The position numbers were made by a program. 25,301 nt of DNA from a virus. Its lineage: Duplodnaviria; Heunggongvirae; Uroviricota; Caudoviricetes. The DNA is taken from the IMG/VR virus record IMGVR_UViG_2579779076_000012, positions 1 to 25,301 of that record. The stretch is one strand, 5' to 3'. This document shows, one piece after another, positions 1 through 6,000 of the stretch. Each line of letters begins with the position of its first letter. Within the stretch, counting starts at the first letter, position 1.

Positions 1-3000
1 ATGCGTGATGGTTTGTTAGATTCTACTAAGCAAGCAATAAGCGAAAGGATTAAAAGCCCATTATGGGGATTCATCATTCTTACATGGGTATGGTTTAACT
101 GGCCTAATTTAGCCATGCTCTTCATGAGCGATGCCCCTGTAAAATTCAGAATTGATTATATATTGCTACAGGAGGATTTTTATCTATTATTTGTAGTCAG
201 ACCAATAGCAATTGGTTGTCTATTGGCAATTGCATCACCATATATTAATTTGTTGTTATCTAAAGCTCATGAATGGGCAGATGATAAACATTCAAAGGTG
301 GTTGCTAAAATAAAAAAGAGACAATTAAAAGATGCGATTGCATTTGCTAAGATACAGGTCGAAGCAGATAGAGCTAAAGAAATAATTAATCATGAAATTG
401 ATATTGATAAAAAAATAAAGGAAGAAAAACTAAAGCAAGAACAATTGAATACGGAGAGCTTAAAGGAAGAGATTGAACAAATGAAGAGAGAGCTTGAAAC
501 ATTGGCTGAAACCAAGGGGAATATTAGAAGGGCAAGGGATAAATATGTTAGTGATGCAAAGCGATATCATTTTGATGTTGCTCGCCTGTTAGCTTTGGTT
601 ACTTCTGTGGTTAATGCTCAAACAATCGAAGAGTTATTAGAGTTTAAAAAGAAGGCTAACTCAATTATTTCACCTACAGAACTAGATAAGGCTGTCTTGA
701 AAAACAAAATTGATTTAGAGGAAAAAATGACAGATGAAGAATTGGTAAGATTCTTTGACTATATAGGAACTTCCTTAAGTAAGGAAGAGGAAGTGAAATC
801 AGAAGTCAATTAGAAAACAGAGAGGGGGGATTATGACTAGATAATTTACCAGTAAATAACAGGAAGATATCAGGTTAGTACCTATGCAATTTAACGGTAT
901 TTTTCCAAGTATCTATGCAATCCTACACAGATTCTATGCAGTATCGGTATAGCCCCTTTTTAGCATAACTTATTGAAATATATAGAGAATCTGTGAAGTC
1001 TCTTTTCAGGGTAAACTGTGTCGTGTTAGTCGTCCCTCTCCAGACACTACATATAGTGCTATATATAGGGCTATATAACGATATATAGTTGTTTGACCAC
1101 TACCAATATTCCCTCAAAGTGACTATCAAGCTGATTAACAGTTTCCCATGTGAAAGTTAGGAGGTGATGGTTATAGTTCCTTCGTAGTTCCTCTTAAAAA
1201 ATCACTTACAGACATCTTAATCTCTATACAGATTTCACGTAGAACACGCTTAGTGCGTAAAACGGCTATTATGTTAAAAACACACTGTGTTTATATCAGT
1301 ACTGATTTATAAGGGTTTTGTGTATTGGCTGATAAGAGGCTATACAGCACCTTGAGAGCATGTCTTATAAGTCATTGACACATAAGGTCACAGAAGTTTG
1401 TAGCTGTTACAGAGAAAACTGGATAGGACTTCACAGAACTATAAAATGTTACAGCTATTGATAGGTGAAATCTTCTTGATAGATGCTTTGAAGTGTGGTG
1501 AATGTTTCTTGAGGTGGAGTTAACAGATGCTATGAAGAAAGTCAATAATTGGTTATAGATATTTTAACTGCTTTTGCAAAGGGGGGAGCTATATCGTGAA
1601 TCTGGGGTACTTAACAGCCATCAATTGAGTGTAGATATTTTTGAAGATTATCGGTGAAGGGGAATGTAGAGGGGTTACTACGATATTTATAAAAATTTTC
1701 AGACTCTGAAAAGTTACTGTACAAATTTTATACAAACAAAAAAGGACTCCGGTGAAGGAGTCCTCATCAGGTAGATTTTTAATGTGGCTACTACCATCCA
1801 CCCATACCGCACCAAACCTTACCCCACCCTACACGACCTTACCTCGCCGGACACTGCCATAGAGAGTGTGCTTGGTTGCTTTGGAAGTAAACCTAGTACA
1901 GTAAGCCATTATACATATCGAGATAGTAACGTCAAGAAACTTTTAACAGGAGGGGTTCCTATGGTCACATATCCCCTCTCTTTCCACTAAGTAAGCCTTG
2001 GCAGTACCTAAGCAACAATTGACTAACAGATTCGGTAGAGTCTATCTCATAGGTCAACTTCATAAACTCAGAGCTAAGTTACCTTGAAAGATTCTACCAA
2101 GAAACTACACAGGTGTTATTTAGTCTAACTGTGAAGGGATATTTAACGGGAGAGAAAGTAACGATATACCGAAGGTGAGTTACATCTTAACAGCGACTGT
2201 AAGAGATACCTGAAAAGATACTTAACAGATGACTACCTAGAAAGAAGGGAAACGAAGAACCGTAGGTAGTGACCTTGTTAAACAGGCTGTTTCAAAAGCT
2301 CTTAAAAGTCTGTTAAGTAAGGTCATGTGAACAATCTTACCATTTTGTCAATGCCTTTGTCTTTGACCTAAATCAATAAAATGTATCGTTTGATATGGTT
2401 TTAAGCAAAATAGCTAAAAATCTTTTTTAGAGGGGCGCTTCGCTTGGGGTCACTATGAATGATTTTTCTCTCGTCAAGAGGGAAGTTACAGAGGTCTTTC
2501 AGAGTCTCAATAGCCAACCGAGGAACAAGCGAAGAACCGGGAAAAAAATCTATTGCCCCCTGAAACAAGGTCTGTAAAGGTCGTTTAAGAGGTCGGCTAA
2601 GAAAGGAGCTTCCCTCTCTGGGGTTATCGCTCTTCTCCCGATTAGTGGGGCGGTTAAGAATGCCTCTGAAGTTATCTGTGAAGATACTGAACAGTCTTAT
2701 ATATATGGGTGATTACAACTCATTGAAAAATAAGTATTTTTAGAAGTTACTGTTAAGGCTACAGAGTTAACTGTGAAGAGACTTGTCAGTTCTCTATATA
2801 TGGCTAATTACAACTTATTGAAAAATAAGAGCTTTTAGAAATTACTGTTAGAGAGGTGAATGCTTGATAGGTGCAGCTTCCCGGTTCTATCAAGCTATTT
2901 TTTAATGGATAGCACAAAATGCTAAAGACACCCCTATACCATCACGTACAGGGGGTTGAAGGGAGTTTAACGGGGGTCTGTGTGGTTGTCTGTTCTGGTC

Positions 3001-6000
3001 CTGTCCTTGAGGTCAAACGACCATTCACGACCAAACAACCTGAACACAATAAACACTCTGACGATGAAATATCGAAGTAGCAGACCTGCAATAAGTCCAA
3101 TACCTCCACCAGCCCATACATCAGGTGACCCCAGTTCAGGAGGGAGATTTACCATTAAATTTCCTTGTAAGACGCTCTCAATCGGATTCTGACACAAAAA
3201 AGTACCTGACCTTATGAGTGACCTGAAGAGGCTGTTTAGCTCGTTACAGGGCGATTGAAGAGGTCTGTGTGCAATGCAAAACATGCGACCAAATACATAG
3301 CCACGCCTTTTCTATTTTCCCCTCTCTCATAGAACCATTATACCACAGATGTTAATAAAATGTTAAAAATACTTGACATTAGCCTTTGAAAATGCTAGTA
3401 TTGTATATATAGTTTAACAGAATAATAACATCTTATGAGGGTCAGAACATGAATGCAGGATTCAGAATTTAGAGCGATGCTTCAGGCATCAAGAGAACGC
3501 AACAAGCACAACTCCTACGCTTACACAAACAACCCCACCAGCTACGAAGTCCCAACCTTTAGCAAATCCGAACGTAAGAACATTGAAGCGGTCATTCGTA
3601 GCATTACGCCACGAGACAGATTTATGCCAGTACGCAAAACAACAAAGAATACTATTAAAAATTATCTGGCTAACTTTGATTCTTACGAGTAGTTACCAAG
3701 CAAGCTTGATGATATTTTTATTGGGTTCTGTAGAAGTGAAGGCCACCCGAAATACAACAAAAAACTATTTTATCTTCTAAAGAATCTTGATGAAATTAAC
3801 TCATCCGGCGTGACAAATCATCTTCAGCGACAAGCAACCAGACTTAGCTACGAATTACCAAGCGATAAATATTGTGCATTGCTTGCTGTAATGTGTGCAA
3901 AGCTAATTGGTATTGTTGAACATCATATTGTCGTTGGTAATATCAGCCTTACGATTAGTGAGCCAGACTTTGAATTTGACGTATACGCACAAGCAGAGGA
4001 ATTTTAAAATGAAAAACAAACACACTTTAACCCGTATTACAAAGACAGCCTTTGACGAACTTAACCGAATCAAAAACATTACAGGTCTGCCACACTCAGC
4101 AGTGATGAAGCTTGCAATTAACCGTGATATTAACGAGCAGGATTTGCTTAATAGTCGTTTAGAGGCAGCAAGACACCATATCAGGATTAAGCAAGATGAC
4201 CTTGATAGTCTGAAATCCTTAAATGCTTTTGGACTGGATTTAGCAAGGTTACTAAGTATCAAAATTCACAAATTAGCGATGGAGGTTTAATGTATGACTT
4301 TTATAAACATCGTGACCATTTGGTAAGATTTGACGGTAAAGTCTGGAAAGACGTAACACAAACCAATAAGCCCAAGTTTACCCACCAGCAATTAGCCTCA
4401 AGATTTGATATCTGGGCTGAAGCACAAAAAGATAATGGTGATTTCGAGTTTATCAGAGGTTTTGATTATGCTTACGAAAGCGACCTTAAAGACGCCATTG
4501 AATTAATGGAGAACTTCATCTCTATTAAAAATAGTGACAAGCACAAAGCCAACGGTAACAGATACGATAAAGATTTAATCATTGATGCAATCACCAAAGG
4601 ACAATCACAAAGTTATATTTCTGAGAAATACGGCTTATCACGTAGTCAATACTACAAGATTAAAGCGTCTGTGTAAGTCTGTGAGAATGAGTGAGACTCA
4701 AAGATGAGCTACCCTATTACTAAGGTGTCTCACTCCCTCTGTAACCCGCATGGTTACTGGCCTCAGAATGGCTATTTTGGCAGATTTAAGATGTGTTTTT
4801 ATAGGATTTTAAAAATGAATAATTTCCCACTACAGATTTTTATTGATACCGACACCGCCATGATGATTCAGGCTTTCACTGATGTAGGTGTTAGCATTGA
4901 CTTTGATAAGTTGTTAGAGTTAATGGCTGATAATGCGGAAAGCATCTCTAACTTTATTCACTCGGTGGAGTTTAACGAGCCTCGAATGATGTTACCAATT
5001 ACAGACAGTAATATGAAAAGATTGGTTATTGAGCAAACGAACAAATACAGCGTTAGCCCTGAAAGATATCTCAAGGCAGCTATAGCAATTTTGTACGCTG
5101 ACAATATTTTGGTGACGGATTCGAAGGTGGTGCATTAATGGAATTGGTGATTATCTGTTTTGTATTGGTTGGTATGATTGCAGGTGCGTCTATTAAAGTA
5201 TAGATTGCTATCAATCTGTTAAAAGCTGTTGACAAACAACCTTGAGCATGACATAATTGTATATATAGGAAGAGCAATTTTTCCTAAAATCATATTTTCA
5301 ATAATCCGATGGATGGATATTCTGAGTTGGAAAGGTGCAATGCTTTTCGTCATGGCCTCTCTTATATAACTTGAGAGGCTATCTCAAAAAGTCTTTGTTC
5401 ATTCGTTTGAATCCTTTACAGCTTTGCCCTGACTCATGATTAGGGCTTTCTTTAAGAGTTTTTAAACAGGGCTTTTAAAGAAAGTTTTTCCTGAAACTTC
5501 GTTAACGTTATAAAGCAAACCTCCAAAGCCCTTCACAGATTATGTTTAGGGCTTTTCTTAATAGAGCATCTTTAATAAATCGTTAAGTCATCTTCTAAGT
5601 GTATTGGCGTTGAAGGTGCTCTATTAAGAAATAACCACGCTTAGAGGAAATTATAATGACAAACGATTTATATTTTAACGGTCGAAAGATTGATAGCTTC
5701 GGTGACTGGTCGCCACAGACTGAACATCCAGCTATCACTATTCAGCGTAAAGAACACGATGAAAGAATTAAGCTTGAGCAAGAAATCCGAAGGTCACCAA
5801 AGGAAATCATCTTTGTGGCTCCTGAACCTCAAGAGATGCCTGATATTTGCAAGAGTGAAGCATTATTTAATCTTGAGCGGGAATATTACCCACTGCTGAA
5901 AGCACAAAGAATTAAACTTGATATTGCTTACAGCAAAGTTACCTTGATGCAATCAGCTATTGAGCCATCAGAATTTGAGATTCAGGATGAATTGTCACAG

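Follow-up and report, generated by a model that had tools for sequence, protein, structure and literature searches.

The window analyzed here is the whole of a 25,301-nt stretch of DNA from a tailed-virus record (Caudoviricetes; IMG/VR record IMGVR_UViG_2579779076_000012). Its positions 1 to ~11,300 form a low-GC element (~37%), an integrative island of ~11.3 kb of the serine-recombinase type, and our subject is the gene-poor stretch that lies within this island at 814–3452 and shares sequence with the terminal-repeat region of Felixounavirus phages. The island is present in 539 of 5,426 complete E. coli genomes, about a tenth, and Shigella, E. albertii, and Salmonella have it as well. Its insertion sites are yecE and the tonB start codon, with a 10-bp core, ATGACCCTTG. 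The window is laid out as follows:

1–813: cargo open reading frame (ORF) for a membrane and coiled-coil protein
814–3452: gene-poor stretch
3453–5138, rightward: operon of small ORFan genes
5656–6366: ORFan of 236 amino acids (aa)
6715–8781: tape-measure-like protein (TMP; PF20155)
8955–9728: Dit-like tail protein
9967–11262, minus strand: large serine recombinase
11313–11804: displaced half of yecE (DUF72), right of the island

Coding capacity and transcription signals

A sequence-only reading had described the entire stretch as a 2.6 kb coding desert. That description holds for 814–2966 (~2.15 kb), which has no conserved frame, and fails further right, where a 62-codon ORF is a real gene, so that the true desert is ~2.15 kb plus ~300 bp of leader and promoter. 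Six-frame analysis of stops and of synonymous and non-synonymous differences, in an alignment of nine homologous islands (77–95% pairwise identity), revealed no conserved ORF of at least 40 aa between 814 and 2960, where every frame has stops and a non-synonymous excess. Hidden or decayed genes were rejected on these grounds, and only the 62-aa gene was left. The latter (minus frame 2) shows 84 synonymous versus 61 non-synonymous differences and zero stops in homologues, and is annotated in some RefSeq homologues. Its product has one predicted membrane helix (MVNLPPELGSPDVWAGGGIGLIAGLLLRYFIVRVFIVF...) and no match in Pfam, NCBIfam, or phages. The mRNA, including a conserved leader of ~175 nt, folds with a z score of −2.4; of the traits of a type I toxin–antitoxin pair, the membrane helix and leader are seen and an antisense promoter–terminator pair was not identified. 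The features that delimit the stretch and its transcripts are:

847–1735: left ORF-free module, conserved in all island variants
1935–1735, minus strand: small-RNA-like cassette, with promoter at 1935–1908 and terminator at 1765–1742
2862–2904, plus strand: possible terminator, a GCTTGATAG/CTATCAAGC stem with a 16-nt loop followed by TATTTTTT
2954–2931, minus strand: terminator-like hairpin just downstream of the 62-aa gene, conserved
2967–3155, minus strand: 62-aa protein gene, under purifying selection in nine islands
3366–3337, minus strand: leftward promoter-like site for the 62-aa gene (TTAACA-18-TATAAT, 11/12, TG)
3373–3401, plus strand: rightward promoter-like site for the operon from 3453 (10/12, TG)

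The desert is a general property of these islands. The left module is homologous in 13 genome loci and 31 metagenome loci, with column conservation of 0.8–0.99 (0.92–0.99 at 1240–1640), and in islands that have no cargo gene it starts directly at the island left end. PGAP annotates almost nothing in the corresponding 2.5–3.4 kb of relatives. Intact genes at homologous loci, which would have turned the stretch into a set of pseudogenes, were found only to the extent that some relatives hold optional genes, which were inserted or took the place of other sequence; none is an intact form of something decayed in the window. They encode an HNH-AP2 homing endonuclease, a serine recombinase of the resolvase/invertase type (189 aa), and a Dam-like methylase with an HTH at its C-terminus, and lie in other islands as follows:

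L012 3949–4473: optional desert gene
L013 3316–3885 and 4768–5436: optional desert genes
L014 3480–4028: optional desert gene

An invertible segment driven by the relatives' small serine recombinase was rejected, as no locus contains an inverted segment. Between islands, desert segments are 81–98% similar, compared with 67–99% for genes, and the identity of the segments varies independently; the stretch is a mosaic, a patchwork and not one gene. Among more distant relatives, a contig scan with the Dit-like protein yielded one truncated E. albertii contig only, and an exact-word scan of IMG/VR, in which the loci of relatives end before the desert, found nothing.

The minus-strand intrinsic terminator reported earlier is present, with its T-run extending down to ~1735, as is the divergent promoter-like pair at 3337–3401, which forms a conserved block; promoter-like sites in total number ten, not above shuffles (6.8 ± 2.6). 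A leftward transcript of ~1.6 kb joining these signals is unlikely, since the 2954–2931 hairpin intervenes and the terminator has a promoter of its own (TTGACG-16-TATAAT, 11/12). The internal hairpin and separate promoter make an mRNA of ~400 nt and an RNA of ~165 nt the likelier transcripts. The hairpin at 2862–2904, found by eye and by folding, is conserved and weak (z −0.85), and was missed by the terminator scan because its loop exceeds 8 nt. Searches of the region against Rfam returned nothing, whether at the gathering score or with E relaxed to 5. A large structured RNA was also sought with RNAalifold and z scores in sliding windows, and the outcome was negative, including over the most conserved block (1240–1640): folding z is mostly −1 to +1, and a high structure conservation index is confined to near-identical sequence.

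Phage similarity, repeats, and the G-rich cassette

The genes of the island connect it to Felixounavirus. Its Dit-like protein shares 82% identity with a Felixounavirus protein whose gene directly follows that for the phage tape measure, and a 559-nt patch of the Dit-like gene (8969–9527) has 92% DNA identity to phage XTG1. The island TMP is 27% identical to the phage TMP over its full length, and the TMP/Dit gene order is that of the phage. A patch at 92% in DNA beside a TMP at 27% in protein suggests recent recombination between island and phage. Searches of the desert by blastn against 50,697 phage records also returned mainly Felixounavirus-type phages (of Escherichia, Salmonella, Shigella, and Citrobacter), with the best matches at 1770–1861. 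These protein and DNA similarities suggest, only indirectly, that a helper phage may be needed for induction, replication, and transfer of the island.

The phage has an ORF-free desert of its own. In XTG1 it covers ~1.5 kb (77.0–78.6 kb), has no ORF of at least 40 aa, and lies between convergent terminators; it is conserved in 256 phage records, mostly unannotated. Several phage records begin or end inside it, and the first 581 bp of phage vB_EcoM_D4 are identical to its last 581 bp, a direct terminal repeat (DTR). Consistent with this, the announcement of vB_EcoM_D4 describes direct terminal repeats determined by PhageTerm (PMC11737134), and the paper on the Felix O1 genome likewise deduced short terminal repeats (PMC3185647). 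The DTR of XTG1 (~77,480–78,058) is packed with CTGTTAAG/CTTGTTAG units spaced 10–11 bp apart, with a spectral peak at 10.4 bp; we found no description of a phased CTGTTAAG array in the literature. The related word YTGTTAR occurs 24 times in the phage desert versus 1.2 expected. Because enrichment of CTNNNAAG is partly genome-wide in the phage (2.5-fold, possibly codon-driven), the narrower YTGTTAR alone is used as evidence. The word GATATTTT was rejected as a genome-wide phage promoter word (12 versus ~12 expected), its clustering being confined to the desert.

To compare the two deserts we used reciprocal nhmmer searches, of an island-desert profile against the 89.6 kb phage and of a phage-desert profile against 13 island variants. 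The island-desert profile matched the whole phage at two places only, the terminal-repeat desert and a set of repeats downstream of the ligase gene. The loci and segments concerned are:

L021 31950–33720: phage desert, XTG1 76,950–78,720 (the ends of vB_EcoM_D4 are L027 and L028)
1523–1735, plus strand: segment B, equivalent to XTG1 77,965–78,183, the right boundary of the DTR and ~125 bp beyond it, with the boundary at ~1610
2221–2342, plus strand: segment A, equivalent to XTG1 77,721–77,833, in the interior of the DTR

Segment B is 64–68% identical over 190–290 nt (E 1.8e-6 when the whole phage is searched, with island variant L014 reaching 4.8e-11) and was detected in 13 of 13 island variants, in two of them at E 0.04–0.07 only. 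Segment A is 74–76% identical over ~110 nt (E 1.9e-3 for the window, 1.7e-8 for L014) and was detected in 9 of the 13. Both match the phage on the same strand, and their scores of 7.3–32.5 bits compare with a best of 0.5 bits among 260 dinucleotide shuffles and −5.5 bits for reversed sequences. On either side of the boundary, 35 distinct island sequences and 3 phages share the invariant cores AGATATTTTAA, TGCAAAG, GGGsTAC|..CAG, AGATATTTTT, and TTTTATAAAAATTTT. Two candidates for the left boundary of the DTR were rejected: 9650–9839 (E 0.0036), which lies in Dit and recombinase coding DNA and aligns poorly, and a resemblance at 948–960 (TAGCCCCTTTTT), which is not conserved in relatives.

Between and around these segments lie repeats and dyads:

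877–942, plus strand: three copies of TCTATGCA(A/G)T
991–1009: dyad CTGTGAAG-TCT-CTTTTCAG, operator-like site 1, conserved in homologues
1329–1347: dyad with one mismatch (CTGATAAGAGGCTATACAG)
1770–1861: C-rich, G-poor tract
2210–2228: dyad CTGAAAAG-ATA-CTTAACAG
2670–2850, plus strand: tandem 95-bp repeat, 1.9 copies, 82–83% identity
2676–2694 and 2771–2789: 19-bp dyads that open the 95-bp copies

The triple 9-mer repeat, the 95-bp repeat, and the C-rich tract had all been noticed from the sequence alone and are all present. The TCTATGCA(A/G)T copies, set 31 and ~24 nt apart from start to start and largely invariant (5 island variants), are possible protein-binding repeats. The 95-bp repeat falls in the part of the region that shows a 10.4-bp phasing of AAG. 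The word TTAACAG, the reverse complement of CTGTTAA, had been noticed at least eight times and is enriched: the window has 15 copies versus 4.2 ± 2.0 expected, a count that 0 of 100 shuffles reach, and 9 of the 15 are inside the gene-poor region. The eight copies located earlier exist, although their starts have been corrected to 1135, 1520, 1611, 1943, 2187, 2222, 3414, and 8932, and inverted copies stand at 2310 and 2750. YTGTTAR is enriched 4- to 6-fold in the island desert and not in the remainder of the island or the neighboring prophage.

A second word, CTGTGAAG, occurs 4 times versus 0.07 expected. CTGTGAAG and TTAACAG are half-sites of one 19-bp dyad, CTGNNAAG-N3-CTTNNCAG, and are therefore not independent words. 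The dyad has five sites versus 0.08 expected, all within the region and all at positions kept in relatives. A phage origin for it was rejected because it is absent from the phage desert, which makes it island-specific. Separately, a dyad-like site, GTGAAAAGTCACTTTACAT (GTGAAAAGTCACTTTACAG in relatives), lies at 9866–9884 near the recombinase 3′ end, directly after the Dit-like gene; six further loci conserve it, and it is non-coding in this window only, where the recombinase is truncated.

The second place matched in the phage corresponds to the minus-strand cassette, whose inner parts are:

1861–1796, minus strand: G-rich (GGTNN)n tract
1795–1770, minus strand: hairpin (GGTAG..loop..CTACC)

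With a sigma-70 match of 11/12, a gap of ~165 nt between promoter and terminator, and no conserved ORF, the cassette has, at consensus level only, what is looked for in a predicted Rho-independent small RNA gene; its fold has a z score of −1.5. Downstream of its ligase gene, Felixounavirus has four repeat units, one of which is ~86–90% identical to positions 1770–1861, and the sense of transcription is the same in island and phage. The phage units are tandem-paired and flank two ORFs, with a strong promoter ahead (TTGACA-N16-TATACT, after the ligase):

L020 32,785–33,050 and 34,180–34,450: four tandem-paired G-rich units of XTG1

Each phage unit consists of a run of GGTNN pentamers followed by a hairpin with an invariant loop (GCYACATTAAAA), and the stems change in paired fashion among copies: GGTAG/CTACC, GGCAG/CTGCC, AGTCTCA/TGAGACT, and AATCGGA/TTCGATT. 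Paired changes of this kind support a folded RNA or single-stranded DNA element. Rfam returned nothing for the ligase-downstream region of the phage, and the units may represent an undescribed non-coding RNA or DNA element common to phage and island. Islands L015, L017, L018, and L019 lack the cassette or have other sequence in its place, and in that clade the replacement derives partly from the terminal repeat, in inverse orientation.

Possible function of the stretch and known satellites

As expected of a satellite, the island has a site-specific recombinase, defined att sites, and the capacity to excise, and its genes do not amount to a full set for virion, terminase, and replication. Its only recognizable structural genes are those for the TMP-like and Dit-like proteins. 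The other island proteins have no confident family (matches in Pfam, NCBIfam, and PHROG are weak or to families of unknown function), none is a recognizable replication or initiator protein, PADLOC identified no known defense family among them, and AlphaFold models of the 236-aa and 185-aa proteins are of low confidence (pLDDT 64 and 45) and too poor to use. An excision junction is recorded in a metagenome contig from a gut sample (L039, CYGL01000620.1), which contains a precise attP junction at oriented positions 8860–9010: the island right end, the core ATGACCCTTG, and the island left end, without chromosomal DNA between them. The two ends of this contig share 1.49 kb (99.3% identity), which puts the unit at 11,256 bp and points to an island that is present as an excised circle, a concatemer, or a tandem array.

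We tentatively propose, as a reading that stands a real chance of being right, that the stretch is a non-coding, cis-acting control module of a Felixounavirus-linked island and imitates the helper's terminus for packaging or replication. The suggestion that it is a regulatory or origin hub survives in spirit, given its conservation, its enriched protein-site-like motifs, and its homology to the phage terminal repeat; the accompanying suggestion of a long non-coding RNA does not. Under our proposal, the island would depend on, or fight, virulent Felix O1-type phages, and segments A and B, along with the scattered CTGTTAA/TTAACAG words, would derive from the helper's ORF-free terminal-repeat region. 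Phage proteins that recognize, cut, or package the concatemer junction would then act on island DNA as well, a packaging-signal mimicry that might serve packaging, replication, or both. The five island-specific dyads would be operators for a dimeric regulator, of island or host, that acts on the module and its promoters; the promoter-to-terminator cassette would express a G-rich RNA copied from the repeated phage element; and the right end would be taken up by the gene for the 62-aa membrane protein and by the operon's divergent promoters.

Several observations weigh against this proposal. The segments stand in the opposite order to their phage counterparts, with B upstream of A, and we found no convincing island copy of the left boundary of the DTR. 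The 10.4-bp phasing is present in 2150–2900 only and not in 1100–1750. The similarity is to the terminal-repeat region, not to a mapped terminase recognition or packaging site. No terminase, capsid, or replication protein is recognizable, and a genome of 11 kb would face a head with a capacity of 88 kb. In some islands a small recombinase gene replaces parts of the left module, so that not all of it is indispensable. Finally, the copy in the window may be inactive, or its sequence may hold errors. Its recombinase (minus strand, 9743–11262 together with the severed part) is C-terminally truncated (431 aa versus 507 aa in relatives), with the missing part present as a separate 80-aa ORF, and the first operon gene (3453–4010, plus strand; 184–186 aa in relatives) is frameshifted into ORFs of 79, 65, and 65 aa. 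Intact islands exist among the relatives, for example in NZ_CP061754 and NZ_AP024114.

Some of the same data could be explained otherwise. The homology and motif statistics would equally fit an array in which the phage-like patches bind a phage DNA-binding protein (the terminase, or a protein coating the CTGTTAAG array) for ends other than packaging, either titrating it as a defense or, as an infection sensor, triggering excision and expression of the island. Divergent copies of phage tail proteins, which could poison tail assembly, and the variable cargo genes at the island left end are in keeping with such a decoy or sensor. We nonetheless judge it unlikely: no island protein matched a known defense family, a single chromosomal site is a poor sponge unless amplified, and the attP junction and unit-length overlap in the metagenome contig point to a mobile, replicating element. 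It is, moreover, compatible with the control module proposed above. Priming of replication by R-loop-type transcripts is familiar from ColE1 and the T4 oriF/oriG origins, and the stretch might likewise be an origin, with its repeats serving as iterons or loading sites and the G-rich transcript forming an R-loop on the C-rich template to prime the helper or host replisome. An island with no recognizable replication gene would need a cis site usable by foreign machinery, and repeats, AT-rich tracts, and a near-DnaA box (TTGTTCACA, 2322–2330) are on hand; a strong promoter stands directly upstream of the G-rich unit in both island and phage, and the phage unit is within a DNA-metabolism cluster. 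Yet a whole clade of otherwise intact islands is missing the G-rich cassette, the phage units sit inside ordinary transcripts, and neither an initiator gene nor a cluster of DnaA boxes was identified in the island, which leaves an origin rather unlikely.

The strongly mosaic structure, the optional genes inserted or swapped at several points, and the scrambled order of the patches would be expected if the stretch were an accretion zone with no function of its own, a hotspot of recombination and cargo that records scars of phage exchange, homing-endonuclease traffic, and decayed cassettes. That is improbable for DNA that none of the examined island variants lacks, that matches or exceeds the coding genes in conservation, contains specific motifs enriched many-fold at positions kept in homologues, and has no detectable remnant of a reading frame. 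Nor do we see much prospect for a single non-coding RNA of ~1.6 kb or more as the product of the locus, an idea we regard as highly improbable even though the region is conserved without ORFs and is bounded by a strong leftward promoter (3366–3337) and a good terminator (1765–1742). The hairpin at 2954–2931, the convergent one at 2862–2904, and the promoter at 1935–1908 all lie between and would split such a transcript internally; there is neither excess folding energy, z being near 0, nor an Rfam match; and segments within the span are freely replaced among relatives.

Returning to the control module, comparison with known satellites shows both kinship and differences. P4 (with the cos of P2), SaPIbov5, and EfCIV583 (with helper cos or pac copies) carry a helper packaging signal and are packaged by the helper terminase. 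Their short signals (tens of bp to ~200 bp) hardly differ from those of the helper, whereas the putative island signal is diverged, is split between two patches that lie in the reverse order, and would need to work with a DTR-type mechanism. The closest parallel with experimental backing is PLE of Vibrio cholerae, also a small large-serine-recombinase island tied to a strictly lytic myovirus. PLE carries in non-coding DNA a diverged copy of the helper packaging region, to which the terminal-repeat copies of the island would correspond. Transduction of PLE requires this pac site, 89 bp that match part of the pac region of ICP1 at 71% identity (PMC11417361); the island copies measure ~200 bp at 64–68% and ~110 bp at 74–76%, and in both systems the copy is recognized by nucleotide similarity in an otherwise unrelated genome. 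ICP1, however, is of the pac/headful type, whereas the ends of Felixounavirus are fixed direct terminal repeats. The island similarity also differs in that it spans the repeat boundary, is embedded in ~2 kb of repeats, and is known from sequence alone, and no Gpi/Gps-like, capsid-remodeling, or RepA-like genes are recognizable in the island.

The PICMI of Vibrionaceae are minimal satellites of virulent phages that have no capsid-remodeling genes and are packaged as concatemers (PMC10803314), and packaging of that type might explain how an element of 11 kb could fill a large head. PICMI differ in integrase, genes, and hosts, and the abstract describing them mentions neither tail genes nor a 2 kb non-coding module. 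The RNAs OLE, GOLLD, and ROOL also come from kilobase-scale conserved non-coding DNA, often on mobile elements or prophages; the island differs in having no Rfam match, no excess stability, and no long-range structure supported by covariation, and in its internal promoters and terminators. A lead of another sort comes from junctions of the T7 type, in which a terminal repeat in ORF-free DNA is accompanied by arrays of 7–8 bp units about one helical turn apart. The T7 terminal repeat is reportedly flanked by arrays of short CCTAAAG-like repeats; the phage family and the unit sequence are different, and even for T7 the part played by such arrays is unsettled.

In the literature we found no report of this island family, or of a satellite or dedicated island of Felixounavirus. 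A more specific proposal, possible in our view yet on balance doubtful, is that the islands are an undescribed satellite family of virulent, terminal-repeat Felix O1-type phages, in which a gene-free module of ~2 kb lets the phage terminase cut and package island concatemers and the island TMP and hub proteins re-tool or sabotage the helper tail. Felix O1-type phages are widely used for typing of Salmonella and E. coli, for biocontrol, and for therapy. If the proposal were correct, ~10% of E. coli genomes would hold an element that specifically exploits or blocks these phages, affecting host range and therapy outcomes; this would be the first packaging-signal mimicry aimed at a direct-terminal-repeat phage, and the cores shared by island and phage would point to the Felixounavirus terminase recognition site. 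The comparison also brings out two uncharacterized non-coding features of the phage itself, the phased CTGTTAAG array of its DTR and the G-rich units that follow its ligase gene.

Other island genes and the adjacent prophage

The first operon gene, frameshifted in the window, is 99% identical in DNA in L006 and L032 and has relatives in Salmonella too. The second (3907–4290, with a likely true start near 4009) encodes a protein with a ribbon-helix-helix-like N-terminus (TRITKTAFDELNRIK...), for which matches to DndE and to P27-family small terminases are sub-threshold only; the protein, of 93 aa, is a candidate binder of the dyads or repeats, and the 128-aa HTH protein of the island may be another for the dyads.

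The slot between the island left end and the desert is occupied by different, unrelated ORFans in different islands, none of which match PADLOC, and is a candidate position for accessory or defense cargo:

Window 1–813: left-slot ORFan
L004 9160–9993: left-slot ORFan
L006 8898–9818: left-slot ORFan
L001 11352–12017: left-slot ORFan

At the extreme left end of some islands (L019 1421–1480), ~50 nt are 88–98% identical to non-coding DNA of phages NBEco004, NBEco005, and EC106; this segment is absent from L018 and from the window.

A scan for tRNA and tmRNA genes found none. To the right of the yecE half lies a lambdoid prophage with a tyrosine integrase and C4/isrK RNAs. Its isrK (61.6 bits) stands beside a C4 antisense RNA (82.4 bits) at 20589–20777 of the window, and the pair overlaps the start of a Rha/Ash-family gene, an ordinary immunity module of the P1/P7 type.

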